From assembly GCA_030390025.1 (NCBI GenBank), contig CM059432.1, positions 97,280,001-97,344,000 of the forward strand: a stretch of 64,000 nt of DNA. The letters run 5' to 3'. The stretch's first letter is position 1; every line of letters starts with the position of its first letter. Shown here one piece after another: positions 22,647 to 63,020 of this stretch. A model generated the notes under the pieces. It searched no databases and had not been told where the DNA came from. It saw nothing but the letters and a program-made list of their open reading frames with translations. Both the position numbers and the translations under genes were made by a program. Origin of the DNA: Squalus acanthias (taxonomy: Eukaryota).

Positions 22647-23857
22647 ATGGGCACGATTTATGCGCCGTCACCTTGGCCTCTGAATCTGATGACGATCAGC
22701 TGCAACAGCAGAACCAGCCACACCAGCAGCAGCAGCAACAACAAGAACGGCAACTTTCTCCTCAACCACCTGATGCCGCAGAGGGCATAGGGCATCAGCG
22801 CAGGGCTGCACCACGCCAGAGGCGATACCCCCAACACAGGGTATACAGGCAGAGGATGAGCTTCCTCAACATGACTGAGCAGCAGTGCCAAAGGAGGCTC
22901 AGGCTATCGCGCCTGGTCGTCGCCGACATTTGTACTTTACTGGAGTAAGACCTGCAGCCCAGAGGAAAGGGTGGACACTCACCCTTGCCCTTAACTTCTT
23001 CACCTCAGGCTCCTTCTAGGCATCTGCAGTTGGCCGCACACAGATGCATCGCACAGGTAATCGATGCCCTGTTTAATAAGCCCGCAAATTATATTCATTT
23101 TGCCACTGATGAAGCCACTGTCAACGAACGTGCGCTTGGCTTTGCCGCTCCAGCTGGCTTCTCATGGGTGCAGGGAGTCATCGACTGCACACATGTGGCC
23201 ATCAGGGCACCCCATCACAACCCAGTAGTGTTTGTTAACCACAAGGGCTTCCACTCCCTCAACGATCAGCTGGTCTGCAACTATAGGAAGATTATCATCA
23301 ATGTGTGCGCCAAGTTCCCTGGCAGCTGCCATGACTCGTACATCCTGCGCCAGTCCACCGTCCCTCAGCTCTTCACACCGCCAAACAGGCTTGGCAACTG
23401 GCTGCTTGGAGACACGGACTGTCCCCTGAAGACATGGCTCATGACACCTTTGAGGAGGCCAACAAATGAGCCTGAGGGACGTTATAATCAAAGCCACATC
23501 TCCAAGAGAAGTGTCATCGAGCAGACAAAAGGCTTGCTCAAAATGCGCTTCAGATGTCTCATCAGATCTGGAGGAGCCCTTCAGTACGCACCAGCCAGGG
23601 TCTCCCGAATAGTCGTCGTCTGCTGCGCTCTGCACAACATAGCGCAGCAGCGAGGATTAGTACTGGATGAGGAAGACACCACTGAGCACAGAGCCTCATC
23701 GGAGGACGAGGAGGATGAGGACGAGGAGGCTCACCATGAGGTTGGTGACAAGGATGAGGAACACCTGGACGAGCCGACGGTCCCATTGCGACCAGTATGC
23801 GAGCACGTTGCTGCCCGTCACGCCAGGGATACCTTTATCAATGGCAGATTTCAATAA
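22647..23857 (+). pseudogene. HARBI1-like transposase pseudogene
   Basis: [12 protein letters not shown] and IEQTKG are present. In-frame stop at 22946-22948 and small deletions relative to copy 1. Confidence 0.85.
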
Positions 23858-27099: not shown

Positions 27100-29700
27100 C
27101 ATGAAACATAGAAACATAGAAGATAGGAGCAGGAGTAGGCCATTCGGCCCCTCGAGCCTGTTCCACCATTTAATGAGATCATGGCTGATCATCCAAATTC
27201 AGTACCCTGTCCCTGCTTTCTCCCCATATCCTTTAATCCCTTTAGCCTTAAGAAATATATCTAACTCCTTCTTGAATATATTTAATGAATTGGCCTCAAC
27301 TGCCTTCTGTGGTAGAGAATTCCACAGGTTCACCACTCTCTGGGTGAAGAAATTCCTCCTCATCTCAGTCCTAAATGGCTTACCCCTTATCCTTAGACTG
27401 TGACCCCTGGTTCTGGACTCCCCCGCCATCGGGAATATCCTTCCTGCATCTAGTCTGTCTAGTCCTGTTAGAATTTTATAAGTTTCAATGAGATCCCCTC
27501 GCATTCTTCTAAACTCTAGCGAATATAAGCCTAATCGACCCAATCTCTCTTCATACGTCATTCCTGCCATCCCAGGTATCACTCTGGTGAATCTTCGCTG
27601 CACTCCCTCCATGGCAAGAACATCCTTCCTCAGATAAGGTGACCAAAACTGCACACAATACTCAAGGTGTGGTCTAACCAAGGCCCTGTACAACTGCAGC
27701 AAGACATCCTTGCTCCTGTACTCGAATCCTCTCGCTATGAAGGCCAACATACCATTTGCCTTCTTAACCGCCTGCTGCACCTGCATGCTTACCTTCAGCG
27801 ACTGGTGCACAAGGACACCCAGGTCATGTTGCAATTCCCGTTTTCCCAATCTATTGCCGTTCAGATAATAATCTGCCTTCCTGTTTTTGCCTCCAAAGTG
27901 GATAACCTCGCATTTATCCACATTATACTGCATCTGCCATGCATCTGCCCAATCACCCAACCTGTCCAAATCATACTGGAGTTTCTCGGCATCCTCCTCA
28001 TAGCACACACGCCCACCCAGCTTTGTGTCGTCTGCAAACTTGGAGATATTACATCTAGTTCCCTCTTTTAGATCATTTATATATATTATGAATAGCTGGG
28101 GTCCTGGCACCGATCCCTGCGGTACCCCACTAGTCACTGCCTGCCACTCGGAAAACGACCCATTTATTCCAACTCTTTGCTTCCTGTCTGCCAACCAGTT
28201 CTCTATCCAAGTTAGTAGCTTACCCCCAATCCCATGTGCTTTAACTTTGCATGCTAATCTCTTATGTGGGACCTTATCGAAAGCCTTCTGAAAGTCCAAA
28301 TACACCACATCCACTGGTTCTCCCTTATCTATTCTACCAGTTACATCCTCAAAAAATTCCAGTAGATTAGTCAAGCAAGATTTCCCTTTTGTAAATCCAT
28401 GTTCACTTTGTCCGATCCTGTCACTGTTTTCCAAGTGCTCTGCTATTACATCTTTTATAATGGACTCTAGCATTTTCCCCACTACCGATGTCAGGCTTAC
28501 CGGTCTATAATTCCCCGTTTTCTCTCGACCACCTTTTTTAAATAGTGGGGTTACATTAGCTACCCTCCAATCCATGGGAACTGTTCCAGAGTCTATAAAA
28601 TTTTGGAAGATGGCCAGCAATGCATCTACTATTTCTCAGGCCACTTCCTTAAGTACTCTAGGATGTAGATTATCAGGCCCTGGGGATTTATTGGCCTTCA
28701 ATCCCGTCAATTTCCCTAACAACATTTCCCTACAAATACTGATTTCATTCAGTTCCTCCTTCTCATTAGACCCTATGTTCCTCGACATCTCTGGGAGGTT
28801 ATTTGTCTCCTCCTTTTTGAAGACAGAACCAAAGTATGTATTTAATTGGTCAGCCATTTCTTTGTTCCCCATTATAAATTCCCCTGATTCTGACTGCAAG
28901 GGACCTGTGCTTGACTTCACCAATCTTTTTCTCTTCACATATCTATAGAAGCTTTTACAGTCAGTTTTTATGTTCCCTACTCTCATATTCTATTTTCCCC
29001 TTCTTAATTAATCCCTTTATCCTCCTTTGCTGAATCTTAAACTGCTCCCAATCCTCAGGTTTGCTGCTTTTTCTGGCCAATTTATATGTGCTCTCCTTGG
29101 ATCTTATGCTATCCCTAATTTCCCTTGTTAGCCACGGTTGAGTCGCCTTTTATGTTTTATTTTTATGCCAAACAGGGATGAACAAATTCTGTAGTTCATC
29201 CATGCGATCTTTAAATGTTTGCAATTGCCTATCCACCGTCAACCCTTTAAGTAATACTCTCCAATCCATCCTAGCCAACTCGCGCCTCATACCATCGTAG
29301 TTTCCTTTATTTAAATTCAGGACCCTAGTCTCTGAGTGAACTACTTCACTCTCCATTTTAATGTAGAATTCTACCATATTATGATCGCTCCTCCCCAAGG
29401 GGCCTTGCACAAGATTGCTAATTAATCCTTTCTCATTACATAATACCCAGTCTAAGATGGCCTGATCTCTAGTTGGTTCCTCGACATATTGGTCCAGGAA
29501 ACCATCCCGTATACACTCTAGGAATTCCTCCTCCACAGTATTGTTACTAATTTGGTTAGCCCAATCTATATGTAGATTAAAGTCACCCATGATAACTGCT
29601 GTGCCCTTATTGCATGCGTCTCTAATTTCCCATTTAATGCCATCCCCAACCTCAGCATTATTGTTTGGGGGTCTGTATACAACTCCCACTAACGTTTTCT
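27100..29700 (-). mobile_element. CR1 LINE, 5'-truncated within the endonuclease
   Basis: ORF2 pieces at 29150-29689 (VVYRPP, MGDFN), 28636-28986 and 27199-28620. Octamer-type 3' tail (TTCTATGT)n. Confidence 0.92.
27199..28620 (-). CDS. CR1 ORF2 reverse transcriptase and C-terminal domain (partial)
   Basis: NYRPVSLTS, YLDFQKAFD, GVPQGS, KFADD, LVRPHLEYCVQFWSP. Confidence 0.9.
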   Translation of the reverse strand: MLAIFQNFIDSGTVPMDWRVANVTPLFKKGGREKTGNYRPVSLTSVVGKMLESIIKDVIAEHLENSDRIGQSEHGFTKGKSCLTNLLEFFEDVTGRIDKGEPVDVVYLDFQKAFDKVPHKRLACKVKAHGIGGKLLTWIENWLADRKQRVGINGSFSEWQAVTSGVPQGSVPGPQLFIIYINDLKEGTRCNISKFADDTKLGGRVCYEEDAEKLQYDLDRLGDWADAWQMQYNVDKCEVIHFGGKNRKADYYLNGNRLGKRELQHDLGVLVHQSLKVSMQVQQAVKKANGMLAFIARGFEYRSKDVLLQLYRALVRPHLEYCVQFWSPYLRKDVLAMEGVQRRFTRVIPGMAGMTYEERLGRLGLYSLEFRRMRGDLIETYKILTGLDRLDAGRIFPMAGESRTRGHSLRIRGKPFRTEMRRNFFTQRVVNLWNSLPQKAVEANSLNIFKKELDIFLKAKGIKGYGEKAGTGY

Positions 29701-30569: not shown

Positions 30570-32775
30570 GAGAGAGCCAGAATTAATTGAAAGGAGAGTT
30601 TCAGCTTTAACTGGGGGGAGTGGGAAAGAGATTGCCAGCTCGAATGGGAGAAAAGATGAGTTCCACCTAGAATAGATGACCAGATGAATGTCAGCTTGAT
30701 CTGGGGGAGAAGAGTGACAGTTTGAATCATAGAATCATAGAAATTCACAGCACAGAAGGAGGCCATTCGGCCGGCAAAGAGCTATCCACCCTAATCCCAC
30801 TTTCCAGCACTTGGTCCGTACCCTTGTAGGTTACGGCACTTCAACTGCATATCCAAGTACTTTTCAAATGTGATGAGAGTCTCTGCCTCTAGCACCCTTT
30901 CAGGCAGTGAGTTCCAGACCCTCACCACCCTCTGGGTGAAAACATTTCTCCTCAACTCCCCTCTAAAACTCCGACCAATTATTTAAATCTATGCCCCCTG
31001 GTTATTGGCCCTTCTGCTAAGGGAAATAGATCCTTCCTATCCACTCTATCTAGGCCCCTCATAATTTTATACACCTCAATTGGGTCTCACCTCAGCCTCC
31101 TCTGTTCCAAAGAAAACAACCCCAGCCTATCCAATCTTTCCTCATAGCTAAAATTCCTCAACCCAGGCAACATCCTCGTAAATCTCCTCTGCGCCCCCTC
31201 TCGTGCAATCACATCCTTCCTGTAATGTGGTGACCAGAACTGCATGCAGTATTCTAACTGCGGCTTAACTAGTGTTTTATACAGTTTAAACATAACCTCC
31301 CTGCTCTTATATTCTATGCCTCGGCTAATAAAGGCAAATATCCCATATGCCTTCTTAACCACCTTATCTACCTGTCCTGCTACCTTCAGGGATCTCTTGA
31401 CATACACTCCAAGGTCCCTCTGATCTTCTGCACTTCTCAGTGTCCTACCATTTATTGTGTATTCCCTTGCCTTGTTAGCCCTCCCCAAATGCATTACCTC
31501 ACACTTCTCCAGATTGAATTCCATCTGCCACTGTTCTGCCCACCTGATTGATATCTTCCTGCAGTCTGCAGCCTTCTTCTCCATTATCAACCACACGGCC
31601 AATTTTTGTATCATCTGCAAACTTCGTAATCATACTTCCTACATTCAAGTCCAAATCATTGATATATACCACAAAAAGCAGAGGACCCAGTACTGAGCCC
31701 TGTGGAACCCCACTGGGAACCACCCTCCAGTCACAAAAACACCCATCAACCATTACCCTTTGTTTCTTGCCTCTGAGCCAATTTTGGATCCAACTTGTTG
31801 CTTTGCCTTGGATCCCATGGGCTTTTACTTTTGTGACCAGTCTGCCATGTGGGACCTTGTCAAAAGCCTTGCTAAAATCCACACAGACTACATCAAACAC
31901 ACTACCCTCATCGACCCTCCTTGTTGCCTCCTCAAAAAATTCAATCAAGTTTATCAGACACAACCTTCCCTTGACAAATCCATGCTGACTGTCCCTGATT
32001 AATCCATGTCTTTCTAAATGAAGATTTATCCTGTCCCTCAGAATTTTTTCCAATAATTTTCCCACCACCGAGGTTAGGCTGACTGGCTTGTAATTATTTG
32101 GTCTATCCCTTTCTCCCTTTTTAAACAACGGTACCATGTTAGCAGTCCTCCAGTCCTCTGGCACCACACCTGTAGCCAGAGAGGATTGGAAAATGATGGT
32201 CAGAGCCGCCGCTATTTCCTCTCTTACTTCTCTTAAGAGTCTGGGATACATTTCATCCAGGCCTGGCGATTTATCCACTTTCAAAGATGCTAAACTCCTT
32301 AATACTTCTTCTTTCACTATGTTTATTTCATCTAATATTTCATACTCCTCCTCCCTGATTACAATGTCTGCATCGTCCCTCTCTTTTGTGAAACCAGACG
32401 CAAAGTATTCATTAAGAACTGTACCCATGTCTTCCGCCTCCACACACAGGTTACCTTTATGGTCCCTAATAGGCCCTACTCTTACTTTAGTTATCCTCTT
32501 GCTCTTAATGTATTTATAAAACATCTTTCATGAATGGGGAAAAGGCGGGAGATAGTATCAGCTTGAACTGAGCTGGAGGAGGAGAAATGTGTCTGGTTGA
32601 ATTGAGGGGGAGGGGAAAAGGGTATCAGCTTGAACTGAGGGGGAAAGAGGAATGTCAGCTTGAACTGGATGGGGAGGAAGAAGAATGCCAGGTTCAACTG
32701 GGCTAGAGGAGGAAAAAGTGCTAGGTTGAACTGAGGGAAGAGAGAGAAAAGAGTGCCAACATGAACCAGGTTGCC
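30570..32775. repeat. Degenerate ~30-35 bp minisatellite (TCAGCTTGAACTG core plus purine tract), in two halves around a CR1
   Basis: Units visible at ~30570-30725 and ~32530-32775. Confidence 0.6.
30725..32528 (-). mobile_element. CR1 LINE (second subfamily), 5'-truncated and frameshifted
   Basis: ORFs 31499-32524 (DFSKAFD, GVPQGSVLGP, FADD) and 31087-31620. Tail (ATTCTATG)n. Confidence 0.9.
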
Positions 32776-34427
32776 GGGTGGGGGGGGGGGGAATTTTAGA
32801 GGGGAGGATTGCAAGCAAGAACTGGGAGAAAATGTTTTAAATTATAAAGAAAAATAATGATTTCCAAAATGTCAAATAGAGAGTAGTTTTTTGAGGAAAT
32901 TTGCCTTTCCTTTTAGATGAAATGGTATTGGGTGAGGGATAAATGTTGGGCAGAACAACTTCCTGCTTTTCTTTGAATTGTGCTATAAGACCATTTATGC
33001 TCACCTGAGAGGGCACGTGAGCCCTCAATTTAAAATCTCATCCAAAAGGCGGTGGGCTATGAATAATTGGACAGCCTCCGAAAACCAACGCAAGGATAGC
33101 GATGTGCGATTAACCCACGCACATTGAGTGGAATGCAGGCAGCACGCCAACTTCGTGCTACCTGCTAATTATAATGATTTCTGAATGCAGCCAGCACTTC
33201 CTGCATTGTTCATTGGCTGCACGCAGCAGCAGGGGGGCCCAATACCATTAGTAACTTGCATTACTTAAAGCTAGCCTGCACTATTTAAAGCTAGCCTGCA
33301 CCTCTTAAAGGGGAGGTGCATTGTGGCTGCAGCAGATGCTGGGAGTTGTTCTGCAACTGAATTTAACTTGGGAAAGAGAGAAGAATGGCTGACCATGGGA
33401 GAGAGCGGGCCCCCAGGCTGCACTGGAGATCTTGGTGGAGGAGGTGGAAAGGAGGACAGAAGTCTTGTATCCTCACTGGGGCAGGAGGCCCTCCAGACAC
33501 ATGATGAGAAGGCAGAAGGAATAGATAGCCACAGAGTTTATGCCAGGAGTGCAACTCCAAGGAACTGGATGCAGTGCCGGAAGAAGTTTAATGACCTCAC
33601 ACAAACGGTCAAGTTCAGTGAGTACATCATCAAATGCCACATCCTACCAACTGTACCACTAGCCTCAGCCACTGCTCAATTCACCACACCCCCATCACTC
33701 AACTACCAACAATCTCTATCAATCAGACTCATATCTAACATTCATATGCTTCACCTCAGTCTCACACACCTAGCATGGTTGCAAACTCACACCCATATCT
33801 CACAGCTTGCACACACTGCCAGCTATTCAACCTTGACCCAAACAGATTGCACAACACTCACTGACACAACTTTGGATGCTGGAAACCTGAAATAAAAACA
33901 GAAAATGCTGGAACTACTCATCAGGTCAGGCAGCTTCTGTGGAGAGAAAAACAGAGTTAACAGCTGGAATTTTCTTTACCTTGGCGGGTCTGGTGTGGGC
34001 GGTGGCCATATTGGGTCCCGACCCCACTGCTGGCTCCATCCCGCTGTTGAAAATGAAGTTACCTTACTAGGGCCTATTAAGCCTGCCCAGCACGTTACCC
34101 AGCCCAATTAGATGGAGCAGGTCTGGTGACGTCATTCATGACATGTTTTCAGCCGGGATCTTTAAAGGGACCATGGCCACATTACATTTAAAATTTACTC
34201 TAACAAAATGGGTGTTGAATCTTTACTCTACAATAATATAATAAAAGTTATATATGAGTGACAAAGAAATATTTAAATAATATTATCATTACATAATATT
34301 ATGCCATCTAAAGATACGATCAAGAACATAATTTAAAAATGATGTGGAGATGCCGGTGTTGGACTGGGGTAGACAAATGTAAGAAGTCGCACAACACCAG
34401 GTTATAGTCCAGCAGTTTTATTTGAAA

Positions 34428-34464
34428 TCACAAGCTTTCGGAGCGCTGCTCCTTCGTCAGGTGA
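34428..34464 (-). ncRNA. Minimal type I hammerhead ribozyme motif (3' pLTR)
   Basis: UCAC-CUGACGA-AGGAGC agc GCUCC-GAAA-GCUU-GUGA: conserved core, stem I UCAC/GUGA, stem II GGAGC/GCUCC, palindromic stem III AAGCUU. Confidence 0.8.
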
Positions 34465-34772
34465 AGTGAAGAGATACATATAGGCACAGCATATATAGCC
34501 AGAGAACACAGCCAGATGATTACAGTTAATCTTTCCAACTGCCCTTTAATCACACCTCGGCAGAGAGATAATCACGGCAATCAAAGGTGTGGATGGTGTC
34601 CAAACAGGTCAGTCAGGAAAACATTACATCAAAGACAATGTGGCAGATGCTGGGGTCTGTATGAAAAACAAAAAACTTTTTTTGCTGGAAATCACAGCAG
34701 GTCCGGCTGCATCTGTGTAGAGAGAACAAGCCAATGACGACTCGAGTCTGGATGACTCTACGTCAGGTGGGG

Positions 34773-37448
34773 TTACATGTAGCGTGACATGAACCCAAGA
34801 TCCCGGTTGAGGCCGTCCTCATGGGTGTCGAACTTGGCGATCAGTTTCTGCTCGATGATTTTGCGTTGTCATGTGTCTCGAAGGCCGCCTTTGAGAACGC
34901 TTACCCGAAGATTGGAGGCTGAATGTCCTTGACTGCTGAAGTGTTCCCCGACTGGGAGGGAACACTCCTGCCTGGCGATTGTTGCGCAGTGTCTGTTCAT
35001 ACGTTGTTGCAGTGTCTGCATGGTCTCGCCGATGTACCATGCTCCGGGGCATCCTTTCCTGCAACGTATGAGGTAGACAACGTTGGCCGAGTCACATGAG
35101 TATGTACCATGTACCTGGTGGGTGGTGTCCTCACGTGTGATGGTGGTGTCCGTGTTGATGATCTGGCATGTCTTGCAGAGGTTGCCGTGGCAGGGTTGTG
35201 TGGTGTCGTGGTCACTGTTCTCCTGAAAGCTGGGTAATTTGTGCGAACGATGGTACTTTTGAGGTTAGGCGGCTGTTTGAAGGCGAGTAGTGGAGGCGTG
35301 GGGATGGCCTTAGTGAGGTGTTCATCGTCATCGATGACATGTTGAAGGCTGCGAAGAACATGGCATAGTTTCTCCGCTCCGGGGAAGTACTGGACGATGT
35401 AGGGTACTCTGTTGGTTGTGTCCCGTGTTCGTCTTCTGAGGAGGTCTATGCGATTTTTCGCTGTGGCCCGTCGGAACTGTCGATCGACAAGTCGAGCGTC
35501 ATATCCCGTTCTTATGAGGGCGTCTTTCAGCGTCTGTAGGTGTCCATCGCGTTCCTCCTCGTCTGAGCAGATCCTGTGTATTCGCAGGGCTTGTCCATAG
35601 GGGATGGCTTCTTTAACGTGGTTAGGGTGGAAGCTGGAGAAGTGGAGCATCGTGAGGTTGTCCGTGGGCTTGCGGTAGAGTGAAGTGCTGAGGTGTCCGT
35701 CTTTGATGGAGATTTGTGTGTCCAAGAATGAAACCGATTCTGAGGAGTAGTTCATGGTGAGTTTGATGGTGGGATGGAACTTGTTGATGTTATCGTGTAG
35801 TCTTTTCAGTGATTCTTCGCCGTGGGTCCATAGGAAGAAAATGTCGTCGATGTATCTGGTGTATAGCGTTGGTTGGAGGTCCTGTGCAGCGAAGAAGTCT
35901 TGCTCGAACTTGTGCATGAAGATGTTGGCGTATTGGGGTGCGAATTTGGTCCCCATGGCTGTTCCGTGTGTTTGGGTAAAAAACTGGTTGTCGAAGGTGA
36001 AGACATTGTGGTCAAAGATGAAGCGGATGAGTTGTAGGATGGCATCTGCCGATTGGCTGTTGTTGGTGTTGAGTACTGAGGCTGTCGCAGCGATGCCGTC
36101 ATCGTGGGGGATACTGGTGTAGAGTGCCGAGACGTCCATCGTGGCGAGGAGTGTTCCTGGTTCAACTGGTCCGTGGGTGCTGAGTTTCTGTAAGAAGTCT
36201 GTAGTGTCGCGACAGAAGCTGGGGGTTCCCTGTACGATGGGTTTCAGGATGCCCTCGACGTATCCAGAGAGGTTCTCACACAGGGTTCCATTGCCTGATA
36301 CGATAGGACGTCCGGGTGTGTTGGCTTTGTGTATCTTTGGGAGGCAGTAGAAGTCTCCCACACGGGGAGTACGTGGGATGAGAGCGCGTAGGATGCTATG
36401 AAGGTCTGGATCGAAGGTCTTGATCAGTCTATTGAGTTGGCGGGTGTGTTCTTTGGTCGGATCTGCGGGTAACTGTCTGTAGTGTTCCTGGTTGTCCAGT
36501 TGTCGGTATGCTTCTTTGCAATAGTCCATTCTGTTCTGTATGACGATGGCTCCTCCTTTGTCCGCTGGTTTGATGACGATGTTGCGGTTGTTCTTGAGAG
36601 CGTGGATGGCGTTGCGTTGTGCTCGGGTGACATTCTGGACTGTCTTGTGAGTGTGGCTGATGAATCTGGCATTGATGCATCTCCTGACAGCTTGAGCATA
36701 CATGTCAAGCTTAGGGCAGCGACCCTCCGGAGGGGTCCAATTTGACTCTTTCTTCTTCGGTTGCTGCACTGCAGGTCCCTCTGTCTGCTGTTCCGGATCA
36801 TTGATTGTCTCATTGGGTTCGCTGCTGACATCTTGGGATTCGTGGAAGAATTCCCAGAGCCTCATTCTCCTGATGAATTCCTCTGTGTCTGCCGCGAGAT
36901 CGATGGGGTCCATTTTGGTGGTGGGGCAGAAATTGAGCCCTCGGCTGAGAACTTCGATTTCATCTGGTTGAAGGGTGTGGTCGGACAAGTTGACGATGGA
37001 CTTCCCTGTGGTTGCAACCATGGTACCGGGGGAGGCTTGGTTGCTGCTGGTGGTGATGCCGAGTTTCTCAAGCTTCCTGTTCTTGGTGTGCATGTAGGTA
37101 GCGTAGTTCCGTTGCCTCATCTGTTTGGCGGTGTCTCATAGCTGGTCTGCTGTGTCCTGAGCTCAGGCTGAGAGCATGGACTCTATCTTGGTTTCGAGGT
37201 TGCGGCGTCTGCTGTAGAGCTGGCGTACGAGTTGGTTGAGGAGTGTGCGAGAGGTACGACGGCAGAGTCTCTCAGCATAGTCTGTGTTGTATGTCGACTT
37301 GAGTGGGTTCGTGATCTGTAGTCCTTTCAGGATCTTGTCTGCTTTCTTGCATCTCTGTAGAAACTTGATGTCTGTGTCGATATGCGCGATCTTCTTGGAG
37401 ATCCTCTCCACTTTGAGCCGGCAGTTTGTGGTGTCGATAGTAGCCATG
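34773..37448 (-). pseudogene. Penelope RT/GIY-YIG polyprotein, broken near 37160 and frameshifted near 35240
   Basis: 707-aa ORF with IKPADKGG, LPKIHK, RPIVS, MDVSALYTSI, GTAMG, YIDD. The shifted frame reads PCHGNLCKTC...NVVYLIRCRKGC..WYIGET...GLN. Confidence 0.9.
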
Positions 37449-37534
37449 ATGTGGAGATGCCGGTGTTGGACTGGGGTGGACAAATGTAAGAAGTCGCACA
37501 ACACCAGGTTATAGTCCAACAGTTTTATTTGAAA

Positions 37535-37571
37535 TCACAAGCTTTCGGAGCGCTGCTCCTTCATCAGGTGA
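37535..37571 (-). ncRNA. Minimal type I hammerhead ribozyme motif (5' pLTR)
   Basis: Same motif with a CUGAUGA core. Confidence 0.8.
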
Positions 37572-40059
37572 AGTGAAGAGATACATATAGGCACAGCATA
37601 TATAGTCAGAGAACACAGCCAGATGATTAAAGTTAATTTAAAAAGTACATTAATTGGGAAGTTATTGGCGCTTTAGTCACAAATCTATAGACTTTTGTAT
37701 CAGTAACTGGTACAAATAAAAGATGTGTGTGTATAGGTAATATATAAAATTAAGCAGATTTTAAATGTAATTGTAAAGGGGTGGATTTACAAACTTATGC
37801 AAGTTCAGCGGAAGAGCTGTGGAAACCCTGACAAACAGTGTAAGTGGTGCTCATGTGTTTCTGGGATTTTTGCAGCTCTTCCGTTGAAGTTAACAATGAA
37901 CAAGTGAGAGAACGTCTGCAGAAATTCACCCTCAAAGTCTCAGACTGAAAAATTCAATTAGTTATTTTCAGGGACTGAAAGCAAATTGAACCAGTGGAAT
38001 GAAATTGATACGGTTGATGACTTGATTTAATCTGTAACTGGACAATCACAGTATACTGTGAGAAAAACCTGACCAGAAACAACACAAATATTTATTTAAA
38101 TATTATATGTCATTTTTTATAGTGCAGATCAATTCACTGCAATTACTGTTGAGTTGGAAGGCAACAGCCGAGAATGGCCAGTGAAAAATGTATTTCCTCA
38201 CCATCCAGGGTAGGAAGGGTGCCTTCAGCACTCACATCCCTTCAGGAATTTCTGAATTAACATTTACCAGGAGTTTTTCAAATAGAACAGAATTTCCATC
38301 AATCTGTTAGCTGATGTAATCAACATGTTTTTATTTTGGTTTGTTTTTCATGCTGTCAAGTAATCAGCTGGAGCAATGACCTTGAAACCCACACCTTAGG
38401 TTGGCAGACCTGCTTCCCGAGCTGCGTGAATCCCGTAGTCATGCAGGGAAATTTAAAAAGTAAGTGAATAAAGGCTCTTAAGTGCCTGTAAACTACCTGA
38501 TAATCATCTCAATTGAGTCCCCCGCCACTGCCGGTCGGTCAGCTCTGTGATGACAGACGCGCCTGGGGGAAAGGCAAGTGGTAGCAAGATGACAGCAGGT
38601 TCCTGACCCGCTGTCAAAAATAAAAACTTTCCCACCCGACCCACTACCGATCTCACCCGCTACCACCCTGGAAAATTTAGCCCACCGTTTCAGGTCGATG
38701 TCCTTTCATCAATGACCCACTTCCCTATCTCTTGCAGGAAAAGATGGCGCACAACCGGAAGCAACTGGAAATAACTGGAGGAGGAGAGGCGCACCTGCAT
38801 GTTCTAACCCCATGGAGGAGACATTGCGGGAAGGGCCATTGCTGATGTCGTGGCCACCGGCGGGGCTGAACCATAGAAGATGACAGTATCCTCATACCTA
38901 ATTCTGCTTCTCACATCCCACTTCTCCCTCATTCCTAACTCTCTTCTGAATTACAACCTGCGGATGTTGCAAGCATGGACTTCTTACACTCTCCACTCAC
39001 CACAATCCTAGTCCCTTTTTCATTTCAAATATCCAAGAACTGCAACCTAGCCAGGTGGAAGAGCAACAAGACAGTGAAGATGAAGGGACAACATCACTCG
39101 ATTTCACACTCACAGCCACGAGATCAGATAATGACACTGTGTGTAATTTAGAGGATAGCATTGAGGCGGGATCTGCACATGGTGAGACACCAGGCACAAG
39201 TGTGCTGCAGCCAGGACAGGTGCCAGCTCACCGGAGGGTGAAGTCGCACACTAGTTCTGCTGCAGAGGACTCAGATAAGGACTTCGATGGGCCAGGCTAC
39301 AGAAGAAGGCTGCTGAGTGTACACATCGAAAAGCTTGGTGCATTGGAAAGCCTACCAGACAGCCTGTGTGCAATGTCAAGGAGCATGGAGGAGTTCAGCA
39401 CCAACTTGGCACAGAGCTTTGCACAGAGCTTGGAGCCCATCCTTTCCAGCATGAAATGGGTGGCCAACTCCATCAACACACCTGTGGAACCCAGCATGAT
39501 GCAGCGTCGGATGGCCGATGTCTCAGCTTCCATTGCAGCACAAGCAGCAGCCACCCAATGTCTGAGTGCTGCAGCGGAAGCTCAGACTGCTGCCAACATG
39601 GCTGTGGATACCAGTGTTCAAAGGGGCTTCGAGTCCAGCAAACTGTTCTCCAACAGATTACTAGGATTGCTGAGGCGCCACCCCAGGAGAGTAGCAGTGG
39701 CTCCATGGAGCATGAACTTGCTGTCATCTCTCAGGGTGACAGCATTCGTGCTCGCACACCTGCCACTCTGGCAGTACCCTTGCTTTTGCCTGCCAACCAG
39801 CCAGCTCAGAGGGCTGCCGTCCATGCCGAGATGGTGCAGTCTGTATCCGGGCCTTCTATGCCCAGAGCTACTTGAGGTCATCCTCCAAGGCCATCTGCAG
39901 TCTCTTCCACTGAAAGGCAGCAGCCTTCCACCAGCCATGCTGCACCCACTGGGGTAGCACTTTGTAGGAGCACTCGGACAGGCAAAGGCACACGGAAGAC
40001 AGGCACTAAGGGAATGCACAAGGTTGATTAATGTATTTTTATAAGCAATTAAAAAAAAA

Positions 40060-42905
40060 AATTATTCATTCCTGAGATGTGGGTGCCGCTGGAAAGGCCA
40101 GCTTTATTGCCCATCCCTGGTTGCCCTTGAGAAGGTGGTGGTGAGCCGCCTTCTTGAACCGCTGCAGTACGCGTGGTGAATGTACTCCCACAGTGCTGTT
40201 AGGGAGGGAGTTCCAGGATTTTGACCCAGCGACGATAAAGGAACAGTGATATATTTCCAAGTCAGGATGGTGTGTGACTTGGAGGGGAACTTGGAGCTGA
40301 TGGTGTTCCCATGCGCCTGCTGCCCTTGTCATTCTAGGCGGTAGAGGTCGCGAGTTTGGGAGGTGCTGCCGAAGAAGCCTTGGCGAGTTGCTGCAGTGCA
40401 TCTTGTAGATGGTACACACTGCAGCCATGGTGCGTCGGTGGTGGAGGGAGTGAATGTTTAAGGTGGTGGATGGGGTGCCAATCAAGCGGGCTGTTTTGTC
40501 TTGGATGGTGTCGAGCTTCTTGAGTGTTGTTGGAGCTGCACTCATCCAGGCAAGTAGAGAGTATTCCATCACACTCCTGACTTGTGCCTTGTAGATGGTG
40601 GAAAGGCTAGGGGAGTCAGGAGGTGAGACACTCACCACAGAATACCCAGCCTCTGACCTGCTCTTGTGGCCACAGTATTTATCTGGCTGGTCCAGTTAAG
40701 TTTCTGGTCAATGCTGACCCCAGGATGTTGATGTTGAGGGTTCGGTGATGGTAATGCTGTTGAATGTTAAGGGGTTGTGGTTAGATGCTCTCTTATTGGA
40801 GAGAGTCATTGCCTGGCACTTGTGGCGCAAATGTTACTTGCAACTTATCAGCCCAAGCCTGAATGTTGTCCAGGTCTTGCTGCATGTGGGCATAGACTGC
40901 TTCATTATCTGAGGAGTTGTGAATGGAACTGAACGCTGTGCAATCATTAGTGAACATCCCCACTTCTGACCTTATGATGGAGGGAAGGTCATTGATGAAG
41001 CAGCTGAAGATGGTTGGGCCTAGGACACTGCCCTGAGGAACTCCTGCAGTGATGTCCTGGGGCTGAGATGATTGACCTCCAACAACCACAACCATCTTCC
41101 TTTGCTCTAGGTATGACTCCAGCCAGTGGAGAGTTTTCCCCCTGATTCCCATTGACTTCAATTTTACTAGGGGTCCTTGATGCCACACTCGGTCAAATGC
41201 TGCCTTGATCTCAAGGGCAGTCACTCTCACCTCAACTCTGGAATTCAGCTCTTTTGTCCATGTTTGGACCAAAGTTGTAATGAGGTCTGGAGCCGAGTGG
41301 TCCTGGTGGAACCCAAACTGAGCATCGGTGAGCAGCTTATTGGTGAGTAAGTGCCGCTTGATAGCACTGTCGATGACTCCTTCCATCACTTTGCTGATGA
41401 TTGAGAGTAGACTGATAGAAACATGGAAACATAGAAACATAGAAGATAGGAGCAGGAGTAGGCCATTCGGCCCCTCGAGCCTGTTCCACCATTTAATGAG
41501 ATCATGGCTGATCATCCAAATTCAGTACCCTGTCCCTGCTTTCTCCCCATATCCTTTGATCCCTTTAGCCTTAAGAAATATATCTAACTCCTTCTTGAAT
41601 ATATTTAATGAATTGGCCTCAACTGCCTTCTGTGGTAGAGAATTCCACAGGTTCACCACTCTCTGGGTGAAGAAATTCCTCCTCATCTCAGTCCTAAATG
41701 GCTTACCCTTTATCCTTAGACTGTGACCCCTGGGGCGGTAATTGGCCGGATTAGATTTGTCCTGCTTTTTGTGGACAGGATATATCTGGCCAGTTTTCCA
41801 CATTGTTGGGTGGATGCCAGTGTTGTAGCTGTACTGGAACAGCTTGGCTAGAATGCGGTTACCTCTGGAGCACAAGTCTTCAGCACGATAGCTGGGATAC
41901 TGTTGGGACCCATAGCCTTTGCTGCATCCAGTGCGCTCAGCCATTTCTTGATATCACGTGGAGTGAATCGAATTGGCTGAAGACTGGCTTCTGTGATGGT
42001 GGGGACCACAGAGAGAGGCCGAGATGGATCATCCACTCGGCACTTCTGGCTGAAGATGGTTGCAAGCTTGTCTTTTGCACTCATGTGCTGGGCTCTGCCA
42101 CCATTGAGGATGGGGATGTTCATGGAGCCTCCTCCTTCCGTTAGTTGTTCAATGGTCCACCTCCATTCACGAATGGATGTGGCAGGACTGCAGAGCTTTG
42201 ATCTGATCCGTTGGTTGTGGGATTGCTTAGCCCTGTCTATAGCATGCTGCTTCCATTGTTTAGCATGCATGTAGTCCGGTGTTGCAGCTTTCTCAGGTTG
42301 GCACCTCATTTTTAGGTACGCCTGGTGCTGCTCCTGGCATGCTCTTCTACACTCCTTATTGAACCAGCGTTGGTCCCCTGGCTTGATGTTAATGGTAGAG
42401 TGAGGAATATGCCGGGCCATGAGGTTACAGATTGTGGCGGAATACAATTCTGCTGCTGCTGATGGTCCATAGCGCCTCATGGATGCCCAGTCTTGAGCTG
42501 CTAGATCTGTTCTGAATCTATCACGGTGGTAGTGCCACTCAACACAATGGAGGGTGTCCTCAGTGTGAAGACCAGGTGGTGATGGAGGAGTCCGGTACTC
42601 TGGTATGATTCTGTGAGGCTGTTGCTTGACTAGACTGTGGGACAGCTCTCCCAATTTTGGCACAAGTCTCAGATTTTAGTGAGGAGGACTTTGCAGGTTC
42701 GGCTGGACTGGGTGTGCCTTTTTCGTGTCCACAGCCGGTGCCGAGGTTGATGCCGATGCCGGGTGGTCCGCCCGGTTTTAATCTTATTATTGTTTCTTGT
42801 AGCGGTTTGTTACAACTGAGTGGCTTGCTAGGCCAGTTCAGAGGACAGTTAAGATTCAAACACATTGGTGTTGGTCTGGAGTCACATATAGGCCAGACCA
42901 GGTAA
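40060..42905 (-). mobile_element. CR1-group LINE, degenerate, with 5' region and an internal endonuclease deletion
   Basis: ORF pieces 41848-42663, 40793-41415 (GVPQGSVLGP) and 40066-40638. Homologous to 12638-14400 and 1-2125. Confidence 0.85.
41417..41731 (-). mobile_element. CR1 3'-end fragment nested in a LINE
   Basis: Almost identical to ~27102-27410; the host LINE sequence joins across it. Confidence 0.9.
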
Positions 42906-46443: not shown

Positions 46444-49420
46444 TCAATCCACTTTGCTGACAAGTGATTCAAGATCACTGTCCAATCCAGGCCAGTAAAC
46501 AAAGCTTCTTGACATTGATTTCATACTGATGATCCCTGGATGTTCAGTATAAAGTTCGGCCAGAATTCTATCTCTCAAAGAAGCAGATACCACCACTCTG
46601 TTTCCCCACTCGATACAACCTTGCTCACAAGACAATTCAGTACAATGGTTATGGAATGGTTTCAACTCTGTGTCCAGACACTGATCAGTCCATCCATTCA
46701 AGGTGTTTTCATACACTCTTTTCAGTACTGAGTCCTTTTGAGTCTCATCTGCAATCTCAGTTGCATTCACAGGAAAGTCTTTGTCAACTGCACCTAGCGT
46801 GAAAATAGCACCTTCACTCTCAACACATGAGTTTTCATGTGGCAACCTGGACAAGGCATCTGCAATTGCGTTTTGCTTTGAAGTGCGATATTCAATCGTA
46901 TAGTCATATTGTGACAACAACACTGCCCAACATTGCATTCTTGATGCGGCCATTGCAGGGGTGGCAGATTTGTGCCCCAGTATTGCTAGGAGCGGTTTGT
47001 GATCGGTTATCAGGGTAAACTTTCTGCCAATCAGGAATTGTTGGAATTTCTTGATTCCAAACACTATGACGAGTGCTTCCTTTTCAATTTGCACATAGTT
47101 TCTTTCGCTCTTTGTGAGGGTTCATGATGTGAATGCAGTTGGTTTCTCTTGGCCGTCATCCATTACATGGCTTTTGACAGCTCCCACACAGTAGCTAGAA
47201 GCATCACACGCTAACTTAAGCACACACTCTGTGTCATTGTGCACAAGTAGAGCATCGATAGAGAGACTTCTCTTACAAGCATCGTAAGCTTCCTGTTGTG
47301 CTTTCGTCCACTTCCACTGGACATCCTTCTTGAGGAGCTTGTGCAATGGAGCTAACATGGTCGCTAACTCAGGTAAGAAAAGTGCGTAGCACTGGACCAT
47401 TCCAAGAAAAGATCTTAACTCAGACATGTTCTGTGGCTTTAGAGTATTGATGACAGCATCAACCTTTTCCTTCATTGGTTGCAAGCCATTTGCATCAACT
47501 TTCAGACCAAGGTACACAACCTCGGGCTGTACAAAAGCACATTTGCTCCTTTTGAATTTGACATTGTGGGAACTCAACCTGTGAAGCACTAAATCTAACA
47601 CTTCTAGATTTTCTTCCTCGCTGCTTGCTGCGATCAGCACATCGTCTTGATTGCACAAGCAATTTGGAACTCCTTGCAAAATCTTATTCATCGTAGCCTG
47701 GAAGATTTTGGGGGAGGACTTTACACCATATGGCAGCTTGGTGTATGAGTACAGTCCCTTGTGTGTGTTGATGGTGAGATACTGTTGACTCTCTTTGTCA
47801 ACATTCAGCTGAGTGTAAGCGTGCGACAGGTCAAGCTTGGAGAAACCCTTTGACCCAGAGAGTGCTGCATACAAAGCTTGCGATGTAGGTAACGGGTACT
47901 GCTTATCGTCAACTGCTTGGTTGATAGTAACTTTGTAGTCACCGCACAAGCATACCGTTTTGTCTGCTTTGGGCACTGCCACAATCGGGGTAGCCCATTC
48001 ACTTTTGTCAGTTTTTACTTGCACTCCGTTCTCTCTGAGCTTTGCTAGCTCTTCCTCCACCTGACTTTTCAATGCATAGGGGACTGGCCTTGCCTTACAA
48101 TAGACAGCTTCGCATTGGACTTGATGCAGATATGCACGTCATACCCAGTGATGCCCTCATAACTGTCTGTGAACATGCTTTTGTACTTGTTCAGCATTGT
48201 GATGAGTCACTTCTTTGAAGCATCTACACCGAAGATGTTATTCCAGTCTAGTTTTAAATTTATTAACCAGTTTTTGCCCATGAGGGTTGGCCTGTTGTTG
48301 TAGCTCACTACAATAATAGGCAGCTTTACTGACTGGCCTTTGTGTTGAACTGAACATTCATTTGTCCACATGTCTTTAGGATTTCTCCGGAGTAGGTTTT
48401 TAACTCTACGGTATTCTTTGTAAGTGGTATTTGATTAAACTTACTCTCATATGTGTCCTTTCTCATGATGGAGCAGTCCGCCACCGTGTTGATACACATA
48501 TCAATATATTGGTCGTTGATCAAAGGTTTTGTATGGAAGTCTTTCTCACGACTGCTAGCATTGTCACTAGTGGAATAGATACTGTAGATGCCTAGTTCTT
48601 CAACATCAGGTGTGTTCACTTCAATGTTGTGAACTCCTCCCTTTTGTTGTCGCTGCTTTGCAATGCCACTAGAATGGTTCTTACTTCCTGCTTTAAATCT
48701 AGCTCTGCAAGCTGTTGAAATATGACCTTGCTTCTGTCAGTGAAAACACTTCGCATTTCTGTATTGGCAGGACTGTGGTGAGTGATTTCCATTGCAGCGA
48801 TAACAATTCACTGAACTGCTTTTCACTTGGCCTCACAGGTTTAGGTTTGGCCGTGGCTTTGTGACTGTAGACCTCAGTTGCACTAGTCACTTAAGTTGGA
48901 CGGTGCTCCCTAGGATTCTTAGATGCCATCTCCATAGATAGGGCAATTTTGCATGCTATGTCAAACGTTAGGTTCAGAGTGTTCAGTAACTTGGACTGTG
49001 TGTGCTCATCCACCAGTCTACACACAAACTTATCTCGCAATGCACGATCCAAAAATATATCGAAGTTACAATGCAAAGACAGGTTCTTAAGAGCTACAAT
49101 GGTTTCACTTTGTTTTTGGTTTCTGGTACCAAACTTATAGCTCTCTGCTATTTCTAATGGTTTTGGGTCGAAATAGTCCTCGAGTTTCTCAACAATGTCT
49201 TCAAACGACGCATCCTTCGCTTTCCCTGGCGCGAGTACTTTTGTCAACGTTCCATAGACATTAGGCCCGATCTCTGTTAGAAAAATTGCTTTCTTCCATT
49301 CAAGAATTACTTTATTTTGAGCATGAATATTCTCATCCTCACCTTCGGTCTCAATAATGTTATTGGCCCTAAAAAACATCTCATCCGCTCAACGTAAGAA
49401 CTGAATGATTTGCAAGCTCG
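46444..49420 (-). pseudogene. Gypsy gag-pol remnants
   Basis: gag 48891-49379 (LRDKFVC), protease 48326-48619, RT 47122-48072 (WATPIVAVPK, LDLSHAY, QDD, DASSY), RNaseH/integrase start 46444-47094 (EKEAL, TDHKPL, ADALSRL, HPGI). Confidence 0.85.
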
Positions 49421-53789: not shown

Positions 53790-54897
53790 CACTGGTACTG
53801 CCGTCGGACGAGTCGATCATGGACAGCCCGAGCAGAAAGGGCCTGTCTGGGTTTCCTCCTCCCTTCCGCTTCCTCTTCCATTTCCTACTCCTCCTCCTCA
53901 GCTGGTCGCCGTATGCCTGGTGGCTAAGTCTGTGCCCTCATGATGGCGAAGTTGTGTAGCATGCTGCAGACCACGACAAATCTTGCAACACACTCTGGTG
54001 AGTACTGCAGGGCTCCTCCAGAGTGGTCCAAGCAGCGGAAGCATTGTTTAAGGACACCAATGGTATGCTCTATCAGATTCTGTGTTTCTTTATATGCGTG
54101 CTGCCCACGTGTGCGTGGGCTGTGCGATGGAGTCATGAGCCAGCTGGTCAAGGGATAGCCCTTGTCACCCAATAGCCATCGTCTGGTTTGTCTTGGTGGC
54201 TCAAAGACCGAGGGAACAGTGGGCTGGTGCAAAATAAAAGCACCATGACTGCTGCCAGGATACCGGGCATTCACCATCATGATGTGCTGAGCATGGTCGC
54301 ACACCAACTGCACATTCAGTGAGTGGTAAACTTTGCAGTTGCGGTACATCTCAGCCATTAGATGCAGCATCTGCAAAGCGACCTGCATGCAGTCGATGGC
54401 GCCCTGCACCATGGGGAAGCCACGCTCCACTTGCTTCTCTCTGGTCAGAGAGCAGACATGAACTCCCCTCTCCTGGCATAAAGAGCATCTGTCATCTCCT
54501 TTATGTAGCAGTGGATGGCAAACTGCGGGATGTTACAGATGTCGTCTACTCCAGCCTGGAAGAATCCCGACACGAGGATATTCTGGACCACAGTTACCTT
54601 CACAGCACTAAGCACTGTCCTTACACTAGAGTGAGGCTGCAGGTCTGCTTGCAAGAGGTAGCAGAGTTCTGTGACTACCTCCTTTGTAAAGCGCAGACGC
54701 CTCACACACTGCTTCTGGCTCAGGTTGGGATAAGAGAATTGCTCTCAGACGACCCTAGGTGGGTAAGGCCTCCTGCGGAGAGCCCACCTGCTCCTCCTCC
54801 TCCTCCCTCTGCGAGCAGCTTGTCCTCTTCTTCGCTGCCTCTGCTCCATCTCCCTGTCATGCTGCAGGCCAAGGGGGATGACAATTAGAGCACCCAT
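53790..54897 (-). pseudogene. HARBI1-like transposase pseudogene
   Basis: RRRPYPPRV, GAIDC, HSLNVQLVCD, YPGSSH, LLGDKGYPL, IEHTIGVLK, CSMLHN, spread over frameshifted ORFs. Confidence 0.85.
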
Positions 54898-56934: not shown

Positions 56935-57029
56935 CATCAAAAAGGGTCATCGACCTGAAACGTTAACTCTGTTTCTCTCTCCACAGATGCTGCCTAACCT
57001 GCTGAGTATTTCCAGCATTTTCTGTTTTT
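56935..57029 (+). mobile_element. Short Penelope-derived non-autonomous insert
   Basis: 13-bp TSD ATTTCAAAAGTAT (56922-56934, 57030-57042) and a partial hammerhead (GGTC atc GACC T GAAACGTT). Confidence 0.7.
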
Positions 57030-62586: not shown

Positions 62587-62774
62587 TGCGGAGATGCCGG
62601 TGTTGGACTGGGGTGGACAAAAGTGAGAAGTCGCACAACACCAGGTTATAGTCCAACAGTTTTATTTGAAATCACAAGCTTTCGGAGCGCTGCTCCTTCG
62701 TCAGGTGAAGTAAAGGAATACAAATCGACAAAGCATATATAGATAGAGAACAATGCATGTGAAGCGTACAATGG
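62587..62774 (-). mobile_element. Solo Penelope pseudo-LTR
   Basis: First ~125 bp nearly identical to the pLTRs at 34340 and 37447. Flanked by duplicated CAAGGA (62581-62586, 62775-62780). Confidence 0.85.
62672..62708 (-). ncRNA. Minimal hammerhead ribozyme motif (solo pLTR)
   Basis: Identical to the motif at 34428-34464. Confidence 0.8.
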
Positions 62775-63020
62775 CAAGGAGGCTTTGAGGGTGTCCTTGA
62801 AGCGTTTCCTCTGCGCACCTGGGGCTCTCTTGCCGTGTCGGAGATTAGATTGTAGCTCAGTAATCACTCCAAAGTACCTATTGTATTTTATCACATAGTG
62901 TGAACTTTATGGGTGGTTTTATTGAATAGTGGGTCGGTCTGTTTTGCTGCCAACAGCAGCTGTCAGTGAGAATAGAGAATCAACGCTTGATATAGTCATT
63001 TCCAAACTAACAATTTAAAA

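Follow-up and report, generated by a model that had tools for sequence, protein, structure and literature searches.

Minimal type-I hammerhead ribozymes (min-HHR) have been known since 2014 from both pseudo-LTRs (pLTRs) of animal Penelope-like elements (PLEs), and were reported from metazoan PLEs including the fish elements Xena, Poseidon and Neptune (Cervera and De la Pena 2014, PMC4209133); a further occurrence is in itself ordinary. That paper already proposed a dimer and circle model and published low activity for min-HHR: dimer and trimer constructs from Schistosoma cleave weakly and monomers do not. For PAc, a lizard PLE, the ribozyme is reported to cleave only with the element's own protein, and insertion does not require cleavage (PMC11167929). 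Hammerheads are absent from the thriving Naiad elements (PMC8557442), and Drosophila Penelope is described as having an internal promoter without a TATA box (PMC2377424). Non-LTR retrozymes, derived from or mobilised by PLE pLTRs, have circular RNA intermediates (PMC7229834; 10.64898/2026.07.22.740005); their monomers are circularised by RtcB (PMC7229834), and 8 of 9 Xenopus retrozyme dimers failed to cleave (10.64898/2026.07.22.740005).

A Penelope-like element with a hammerhead motif in each pLTR

The window, a 64,000-nt stretch of Squalus acanthias DNA, carries on its - strand a Neptune-type PLE of 3294 bp (34340..37633) with an 11-bp target duplication. The - strand also holds three 37-nt minimal type-I hammerheads (34464-34428, 37571-37535 and 62708-62672), of which two lie on the coding strand of the element, one in each pLTR.

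34340..37633, - strand: Penelope-like element, Neptune/Nematis type; 3107-nt unit plus 187-188-nt repeat; not coding-competent
34329..34339, unstranded: left target-site duplication, 11 bp, AT-rich; identical to 37634-37644
37634..37644, unstranded: right target-site duplication; identical to 34329-34339
34340..34527, - strand: 3' pLTR; 97% identical to the 5' pLTR, 5 differences
37446..37633, - strand: 5' pLTR, 188 nt
34770..37447, - strand: single ORF with N-terminal region, DKG, RT, C-X4-C-X2-C linker and GIY-YIG with CCHH
34640..34772, - strand: Module A; degenerate hammerhead (5-bp stem II intact, three core changes) plus stem-loop
62587..62774, - strand: solo pLTR of another subfamily, inside a LINE-like remnant; 6-bp duplication
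34428..34464, - strand: hammerhead, 3' copy, minimal type I; predicted cut between 34432 and 34431; structural descriptor and covariance model
37535..37571, - strand: hammerhead, 5' copy, minimal type I; predicted cut between 37539 and 37538; structural descriptor and covariance model
62672..62708, - strand: hammerhead, third copy, minimal type I, within the solo pLTR; identical to the 3' copy; predicted cut between 62676 and 62675

The ORF has RT (RVT_1, E 3.4e-10), a C-terminal GIY-YIG domain (E 6.2e-5), DKG, GxKF and CCHH, as in EN+ PLEs, whose direct pLTR repeats and optional 30-40-bp tail are both found here. Its C-X4-C-X2-C fits the CX2-5CxxC linker ahead of the endonuclease that defines Neptune/Nematis and is missing in Penelope/Poseidon (PMC8557442); we infer Neptune rather than Nematis from the reported presence of Neptune in vertebrates. 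The ORF is interrupted by TGA codons at 37163-5, 37136-8 and 34869-71 and by a frameshift near 35250. This copy is unable to make its own protein, and the locus is a fossil. In the 3' pLTR, the element terminates at bases whose 5' pLTR counterparts form the ORF start codon. The solo pLTR is flanked by a 6-bp duplication (62581-62586 and 62775-62780, found by eye). The stem-loop of Module A resembles the terminus of another PLE-type repeat that is abundant in the window, and all three hammerhead copies share one strand within 28 kb.

Several other identities were tried and rejected. A selenocysteine reading of the TGA codons fails, as the two 5' TGAs are private to this copy and off the conserved Cys columns; a Naiad selenoprotein PLE has an N-terminal endonuclease, DKA and family-wide UGA codons at conserved Cys, whereas here the endonuclease is C-terminal and accompanied by DKG; and a non-LTR retrozyme would consist of short non-coding tandem units that each carry a hammerhead, whereas the 3107-nt unit has an ORF and the third copy is single. 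Viral contigs queried with the sequences P0001 and A2 yielded no relatives, and the one viral and two prokaryote matches to an 18-19-nt pLTR pattern were attributed to chance, having no flanking similarity or RT.

The core of all three motifs (CUGA[C/U]GA, GAAA and U16.1-U17) conforms to the pattern CUGANGA/GAAA/U16.1-H17. The topology is type I with a helix I of 4 bp, within the expected 4-5 bp; one unpaired A precedes stem II, which has 5 bp, a G10.1-C11.1 pair and a 3-nt loop; and the G15.2-C16.2 pair belongs to an AGCU palindrome, with neither a helix III nor a loop 3 within the motif. Three intact - strand motifs with a 4-bp stem I and a 5-bp stem II are therefore present, as the original prediction had it. 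Its assignment of the palindrome AAGCUU to stem III has to be corrected: AAGCUU contains A14 and the cleavage-site U17, both core positions, so stem III of the active dimer would be the 4-bp AGCU palindrome. The further claim that the copies differ only at the variable core position holds, since N7 alone differs within the 37 nt. As members of one family, the three copies are counted as one observation.

Judged by these features, the predicted identity as a minimal dimer-type PLE hammerhead is supported: all of the anatomy set out in the accessible text of PMC4209133 is present, and relatives show compensatory change in the palindrome. This kind of motif is already known, and the shark element is a further bearer of standard PLE hammerheads.

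Chance expectation and conservation in related loci

A structural descriptor matched three times in the window, each match being one of the known copies; among 300 dinucleotide shuffles, two gave one match each. A covariance model (R1), trained on 10 of 25 descriptor hits from other PLE loci (one per family, 2-nt stem III class, with the related locus L033 excluded), placed the three copies on top at 26.3-27.6 bits, with rough E values of 1.3e-4 to 2.7e-4 and a runner-up at 13.9 bits. Rfam searches at E<=5 for the window, where the family threshold was not reached, and at E<=10 for 34380-34800 matched no hammerhead family. A loose core-only pattern was not significant (11 matches against 4.87 expected, with 6 of 100 shuffles equally high), and the folding energy of the hammerheads was no better than that of shuffles (z -1.1 and -1.6).

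Eighty related PLE loci yielded 25 coding-strand motifs in 22 loci, against 1 on the opposite strand and 0.13 per shuffled set, and in L033, as in other PLE loci, the motif is found in the corresponding position. A perfect A15.1-U16.1 palindrome, which the descriptor did not demand, is present in 24 of the 25 motifs compared with 1 of 4 shuffled hits. Two loci (L010 and L019) are otherwise identical with G-C swapped for A-U at 15.2/16.2; because no loop permits pairing in cis, this swap points to pairing in trans. For stems I and II the covariation is in part circular, since the descriptor required pairing there; this does not apply to 15.2/16.2.

Within the shark family, across 40 of the 44 variant rows, none of the 11 invariant core bases is changed (p 0.23) and the varying core positions are N7 and H17 (1 in 78 by chance). 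Variable-site density over the same 40 of 44 rows is 4/37 in the motif and 19/151 in the flanks, the motif overall being no more conserved. An apparent CpG-decay asymmetry sparing G8 and G12, also based on 40 of 44 rows, is not claimed. Five differences over 189 aligned pLTR positions predict about 1 per 37 nt, and the lone N7 difference, a CpG transition at the expected rate, is weak evidence of selection.

The cleavage triplet CUU had been described as less common. It is indeed uncommon, but not special: U17 recurs in 3 of 17 distinct related motifs, L033 has CUU, and C17 accounts for 30.1% of DNA depth in the shark family. Opening position 17 to G gave no extra match in the 80 loci. U17 cleaves more slowly than C17; a cleavage rate for CUU was not found in our literature search. 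The C17 share is lower, at 4.5% and 7.1%, in two presumed-RNA runs, and this was rejected as a sign of cutting because CpG-decay variants outside the motif fall more (from 7.4% to 0.5%).

Placement relative to a predicted promoter, a candidate poly(A) signal and copy ends

The pLTR holds further signals around the motif:

37598..37604, - strand: TATA box, first base 30 nt upstream of the initiator A; also present in L033 and the solo subfamily
37570..37576, - strand: initiator-like YYANWYY; transcription predicted to start at 37574, 3 nt ahead of stem I
34418..34423, - strand: AAUAAA, candidate poly(A) signal, 8 nt past the cut; L033 is without it
37464..37521, - strand: stem P1, 9 bp, pairing 37521-37513 with 37472-37464; downstream of the cut
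37446..37489, - strand: PLE 'tail', between preferred 3' ends of family copies at 37482/37489 and 37445/37446 (loose contig ends)

On these annotations the cassette runs TATA, putative initiator, hammerhead, AAUAAA, stem P1, start codon. This provides a new lead, in that the mRNA of the element appears to begin and finish with the motif, and the earlier suggestion of two copies on one transcript gains support from the predicted start 3 nt before the 5' copy. Among related motifs, 5 of 17 distinct cases have a TATA 36-44 nt ahead of C3, against 9 of 342 local background bins (p 6e-5), or 3 of 15 by lineage (p 0.007), for a distance window picked after the shark case had been viewed; the other 12 of 17 have no TATA at that distance. 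By hand, the depth ratio of presumed-RNA to DNA runs drops approximately 4-fold upstream of 37580; a raw DNA run (X21) that contributed only 13 reads was excluded. No depth step was seen at the predicted cut, where contigs cannot show ends. Among the seven backward jumps listed for contigs, two leave from 37574 with an added C and one from the cut site, 37538.

Family copies have their 3' ends at two positions around P1, one 50-57 nt and the other 93 nt past the cut, so their template must have been uncut or re-ligated RNA. Stem P1 is a candidate RT-binding or initiation element. It is preserved in L033, with two U-A to U-G changes, and its strands have no variants among 40 of the 44 variant rows; in a recount shuffles did equally well, because no double change occurs among the 4 close sequences. 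Also rejected was a pseudoknot past the cut, CUGGU pairing with ACCGG, which overlaps P1.

A possible ribozyme cycle, its alternatives and known systems

We lean slightly towards a reading in which these standard PLE hammerheads, in a fixed cassette, work as paired end ribozymes that yield a unit circle for internal reverse transcription. It builds on the motif, its coding-strand place in both pLTRs, the host element, the two copy ends and the trans-pairing covariation, and posits a transcription start in an active parent, a transcript end, paired cutting, a circle and internal copying. Pol II would start approximately 3 nt before the 5' hammerhead and end shortly past the 3' one, which would place one ribozyme at each mRNA end. 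As stem III cannot close in a monomer, the two copies would exchange stem I strands and pair their AGCU palindromes over 4 bp, weakly and probably only with the help of protein. Nearest-neighbour energies are -19.1 kcal/mol for the double hammerhead, -21.6 for two monomers and -28.9 for a dimer with swapped stem II, so that the double hammerhead is less stable by 2.5 and 9.8 kcal/mol, respectively, in a model that leaves out core tertiary energy; these calculated values suggest a weak, assisted dimer. Two cuts would remove the poly(A) end as well as the cap and the 36 nt attached to it, leaving a 3107-nt unit with 5'-OH and cyclic-phosphate ends that a host ligase could close. The circle would hold a single hammerhead and so resist re-cutting. 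Reverse transcription would be initiated within the RNA at the tail, 50-93 nt past the cut in the 3' direction, and would for that reason need uncut or circular RNA. More than one round of the circle would restore the TATA upstream of the start, as here (59 nt upstream of the predicted start), while most events would stop early and give abundant short copies such as that at 62.6 kb.

A bolder version, which we consider unlikely, likens the pLTR to a retroviral U3-R-U5, with the ribozyme in the role of R. Looping from cap to poly(A), or a protein, would join the copies across 3.1 kb; the paired cuts would switch messenger to ligatable circle; priming on the circle would rebuild the TATA promoter, giving a rare competent copy, and priming on uncut RNA would give short copies. 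TATA and initiator in the pLTR (PMC3846280) and the circle model (PMC4209133) are in print separately, and such a ribozyme layout was not found stated in the literature searched. If true, it would reconcile the circle model with cleavage being dispensable for insertion in vitro.

The strongest alternative, somewhat unlikely in our judgement, is that cutting is not part of transposition and that RT copies uncut RNA from an internal start to the capped 5' end. More-than-unit copies would then be template jumps into the 3' repeat or read-through of tandem masters, and the hammerhead would be a passenger, act as a late switch of RNA turnover, or belong to a protein-bound structure. In PAc, insertion proceeds normally with ribozyme mutants, the main substrate is uncut RNA, and reads ending at the cut are absent (PMC11167929). 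In the shark, the cut site is spanned by all three window copies and most contigs, although a circle equally predicts such copies. Two of the contig jumps, those from 37574 with an added C, are as expected of cap copying, while one is from 37538, and the dimer energy is unfavourable. Against this, the core and the trans palindrome are kept over 17 distinct motifs with stem covariation, for which a passenger would have no need.

That the ribozyme cuts as a protein-clamped monomer, or with dispersed pLTR copies on the same or other RNAs, and so frees element RNA from host read-through transcripts or degrades it, appears distinctly improbable. The protein-dependent cleavage of PAc (PMC11167929) would fit, as would three copies on one strand within 28 kb and a pLTR depth exceeding that of the ORF by one to three orders (as summed contig depth, not copy number). 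However, a zero-loop stem III is impossible in a monomer, the palindrome recurs in 24 of 25 related motifs, and the predicted start within the pLTR makes cutting out of host RNA unnecessary. Chance resemblance multiplied by repeat copying, with which the Rfam result, the folding z-scores and the non-independence of the three copies would agree, is refuted by the shuffles (2/300), the independent covariance model (E about 1e-4) and the recurrence of the motif at this position in L033 and further PLE loci, and we give it almost no credence.

To test what these ribozymes do, the family offers sharp coordinates: transcription is predicted to start 36 nt ahead of the cut, a candidate poly(A) signal follows the cut by 8 nt, and there are two RT start sites. 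It also provides a natural U17/C17 pair and a great number of copies, in which the 5' ends falling at the start site could be compared in number with those at the cut site.

Compared with the min-HHR of PMC4209133, the shark motif shares the type I topology, 4-bp helix I, extra nucleotide between A9 and G10.1, G10.1-C11.1 pair, palindromic 15.2-16.2 without loop 3, and the arrangement of one motif per pLTR approximately 3 kb apart with many solo copies. It differs in its host (the searchable supplement of that paper has no shark entry), its helix II (5 bp against 7-8 bp in Schistosoma), its U17/C17 polymorphism and its placement relative to promoter and copy ends, which was not found in the accessible text. 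The Poseidon element PAc of Anolis carolinensis (Frangieh et al. 2024, PMC11167929) likewise has a hammerhead followed by internal RT starts that define the genomic tail, the main one lying 85-92 nt beyond the cut (111-118 minus 26), compared with 93 nt in the shark, and AT-rich targets are common to both. In PAc, however, the ORF starts inside the ribozyme, whereas the shark ribozyme lies in the 5' UTR with the long copy end on the start codon, and the shark element has the Neptune/Nematis Cys linker, unlike PAc. Pen2a_Av of Adineta vaga (Arkhipova et al. 2013, PMC3846280) resembles the shark element in having a pLTR with a putative TATA and TCACT initiator, an optional tail (31 bp) and a target duplication; its TATA-Inr gap is 20 bp, and a relation to the hammerhead was not found discussed in the accessible text. 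Animal non-LTR retrozymes also carry type-I hammerheads that work in tandem, but are short non-coding tandem repeats, whereas the shark locus comprises a coding-type element and a solo pLTR (PMC7229834; bioRxiv 10.64898/2026.07.22.740005). A review (PMC6765202) also describes a short palindromic stem III and dimer cleavage for the PLE hammerheads that Lunse, Weinberg and Breaker published (RNA Biol 14:1499).

Minimal hammerheads in a Penelope-like element

The three minimal hammerheads put forward in the original prediction are real, lie on the minus strand where they had been placed, and belong to a kind already described in 2014. A descriptor requiring the core, stem II and stem I matched exactly these motifs in 64 kb; on shuffles, it gave a single match in 2 of 300.

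Features of the window
34464-34428, minus strand: hammerhead motif, 3' pseudo-LTR (pLTR)
37571-37535, minus strand: hammerhead motif, 5' pLTR
62708-62672, minus strand: hammerhead motif, solo pLTR
34340-37633, minus strand: Penelope-like element (PLE) with two motifs, bounded by identical 11-bp AT-rich duplications
34772-34640, minus strand: degenerate hammerhead module, directly after the stop codon, in the 3' UTR
56935-57035, 63014-63153, 33876-33961, 10142-10232: second repeat, PLE-type end with hammerhead remnants
8222-8303: further end of the second PLE-type family, truncated or decayed
4697-5980, 22949-23857, 53924-54532: Harbinger-like transposase ORFs (family by eye)
12735-14114, 27199-29698, 31087-32527, 40066-42675, 46444-49388: LINE (CR1/L2-like) RT remnants and a Gypsy-like gag-pol remnant, by eye
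7568, 55793, 60326: tRNA-headed SINEs

Long inverted matches link 3.2-6.5 kb with 22.1-26.4 kb of the window, and no host exon was identified in the 64 kb.

In all three copies, a 4-nt strand of stem I is followed by CUGANGA, an unpaired A and a 5-bp stem II (3-nt loop, closing pair G10.1-C11.1), then by GAAA, G15.2, C16.2, U16.1, U17 and the second stem I strand. With textbook hammerhead numbering and the NUH rule, cleavage would fall between 34432 and 34431, 37539 and 37538, and 62676 and 62675. No hammerhead model in Rfam matched, but a covariance model trained on 10 motifs from other PLE loci ranked all three first (E 1.3e-4 to 2.7e-4; next match E 0.41). The predicted AAGCUU palindrome is present, but the stretch able to form stem III is AGCU; the outer A14 and U17 are core, and their pairing gives a slightly more stable, inactive form (computed energies -21.7 versus -19.1 kcal/mol).

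As predicted, two motifs sit in the pLTRs of a PLE, in direct repeats 97% identical and 3107 nt apart within the bounding duplications. Sharks supply the nearest proteins to its ORF (Heptranchias perlo 92%, Scyliorhinus torazame 83%), followed by turtles and marine invertebrates. This copy is dead: its ORF contains three TGA stops and, near 35250, a frameshift. A selenocysteine reading of the two 5' stops was rejected: every other contig compared has another letter there, so they represent decay. The solo pLTR that holds the third motif is 188 nt long and flanked by a separate 6-bp duplication (identified by eye); compared with the 3' pLTR, it has no differences in the motif, six downstream and many upstream. 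The solo copy (62587-62774) and the 5' pLTR (37446-37633) are independent insertions that both stop approximately 30 nt upstream of the TATA box, with 5' ends at most 4 nt apart in register.

The degenerate module retains a perfect 5-bp stem II, and its core is changed at three places. Two of these changes create a perfect 10-nt palindrome at the expected GAAA position and could be one fold-back event. Since its decay exceeds that implied by the approximately 2% private changes of the element copy, the module probably came from the parent element; no counterpart is present in L033, which among the relatives with a 3' end is the closest (59% protein identity). The stem-loop that follows is 87% identical over 45 nt to the abundant second repeat. 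This second family carries its own hammerhead remnants on ends that are truncated or decayed in the window; its copy at 63 kb forms a head-to-head fold-back, and its 33.9 kb copy starts approximately 3 nt from the family's predicted cut site.

Probable pairing in trans, and variation

Among 80 metagenome loci encoding related RTs, 22 had minimal hammerheads on the coding strand, 25 in all; the opposite strand gave one poor match, in one locus, and shuffled loci gave 0.13 motifs. In 24 of the 25, the bases from A15.1 to U16.1 form a perfect palindrome, a property outside the descriptor. Two motifs (L010:2763-2803 and L019:2808-2848) are identical except for N17 and for 15.2/16.2, which is G-C in one and A-U in the other. 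Comparison of these sequences is good evidence that bases 15.2 and 16.2 pair and, there being no loop, such pairing is therefore possible only between two copies. With this double change in the trans-pairing palindrome, they form a natural pair for studying dimer specificity. A U3-A8 core swap, on record for Schistosoma (PMC4209133), occurs in hammerheads at L013:1676 and 5100, L056:2660 and L064:6217. Position 17 is A in seven, C in seven and U in three of 17 distinct motifs, and L033 has the identical CUU triplet; CUU is thus less common, as predicted, but a minority form rather than an oddity.

Contigs of four runs were compared over 37080-37660. Among the variant rows listed (40 of 44), N7 was C in 80% of the depth of X1, a DNA run, N17 was C in 30%, C11.1 changed to U in 5% (wobble retained) and G1.3 to A in 10%, which would break a stem I pair if no unseen change in the partner compensates. 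These rows leave all 11 invariant core bases untouched (p 0.23), and the core varies in them only at its two permissive positions (odds 1 in 78). The motif as a whole was as variable as its flanks (4/37 versus 19/151 sites, same rows). The single N7 difference between window copies was confirmed but is expected from 5 differences over 189 positions, and lies at a CpG.

Sites 37509, 37511, 37527, 37582 and 37586 vary at 3-10% in both runs guessed to be RNA versus at most 0.7% in X1 (at least 6-fold commoner, among the 25 pLTR rows listed). Each of the five is an A>G or T>C change whose 5' neighbour is U or A, a pattern expected of ADAR acting on both strands, though they may also be alleles; one falls in AAUAAA. 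Lizard Penelope is heavily edited (PMC5625713).

Predicted transcript start and copy ends

In both pLTRs, as in the diverged solo subfamily, a TATA box begins 37 nt before C3 (39 nt in L033). An initiator-like A at 37574 lies 30 nt downstream of it, a textbook spacing, and 3 nt before stem I. TATAWAW occurs 36-44 nt before C3 in 5/17 distinct related motifs versus 9/342 neighbouring bins; the bin was picked post hoc, and three of these five motifs are related. Of the X1 contig jumps listed, two depart precisely at 37574 and carry an added C, one leaves the cut site at 37538 and four start elsewhere; a fold-back joint also terminates at 37574. The added C is as cap copying, known from other retroelements, would give. 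The depth ratio of X15 (RNA status guessed) to X1, calculated by hand, stays at 0.05-0.06 from 37500 to 37579, passing the cut without a step, and upstream of 37580 it drops to 0.014, although summed contig depth is a poor measure and upstream subfamily divergence could mimic the drop. AAUAAA lies 8 nt past the cut and is absent from L033.

Among the ends listed, the best-supported X1 loose ends were 37445 and 37446 (63 contigs each), with 68 contigs at 37489 and 33 at 37482. These give two 3' ends, 37-44 nt apart; they lie 93 and 50-57 nt past the cut, and the stretch between them is the PLE tail. The 9-bp stem between cut and tail is kept in L033, with two U-A to U-G changes and a diverged loop. 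At 37369-37374, approximately 75 nt into the ORF, several contig pieces and jumps of X1 begin or land, marking a possible minor third RT start.

A proposed mRNA with two hammerheads

The mRNA would bear one hammerhead at either end; a double hammerhead, weak and assisted, would form, two cuts would yield a ligatable 3107-nt unit, and internal priming on the resulting circle would rebuild the upstream promoter. The 5' pLTR extends past the predicted start by 59 nt. Of this scheme, the anatomy alone is observed directly; the remainder is our best reading. A linear cut-to-cut RNA would yield only 50-93 nt of cDNA; ribozyme-spanning copies, and the window locus, which spans the ribozyme twice, would therefore need a circle or an uncut RNA with jumps. 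An uncut template with jumps accounts for the same genomic structure, and we regard it as possible but rather unlikely. Counting against the double cut and circle, the double hammerhead is computed to be less stable (-19.1 kcal/mol) than two monomers (-21.6) or a stem-II-swapped dimer (-28.9). Published passages that weigh the same way describe low activity (PMC4209133), protein-dependent cutting that is dispensable for insertion, with no RNA ends at the cut (PMC11167929), 8/9 Xenopus dimers without cutting (10.64898/2026.07.22.740005) and Naiads without a hammerhead motif (PMC8557442). The predicted start-and-end layout of hammerheads on the mRNA is a lead to pursue.

In the Poseidon element of Anolis carolinensis, two internal RT start sites bound the tail, the main one lying 85-92 nt past the cut (PMC11167929), compared with 93 nt for the long shark end. 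A putative TATA and a TCACT initiator have been described in the pLTR of a rotifer element (PMC3846280), whereas the Drosophila Penelope promoter is internal and TATA-less (PMC2377424).
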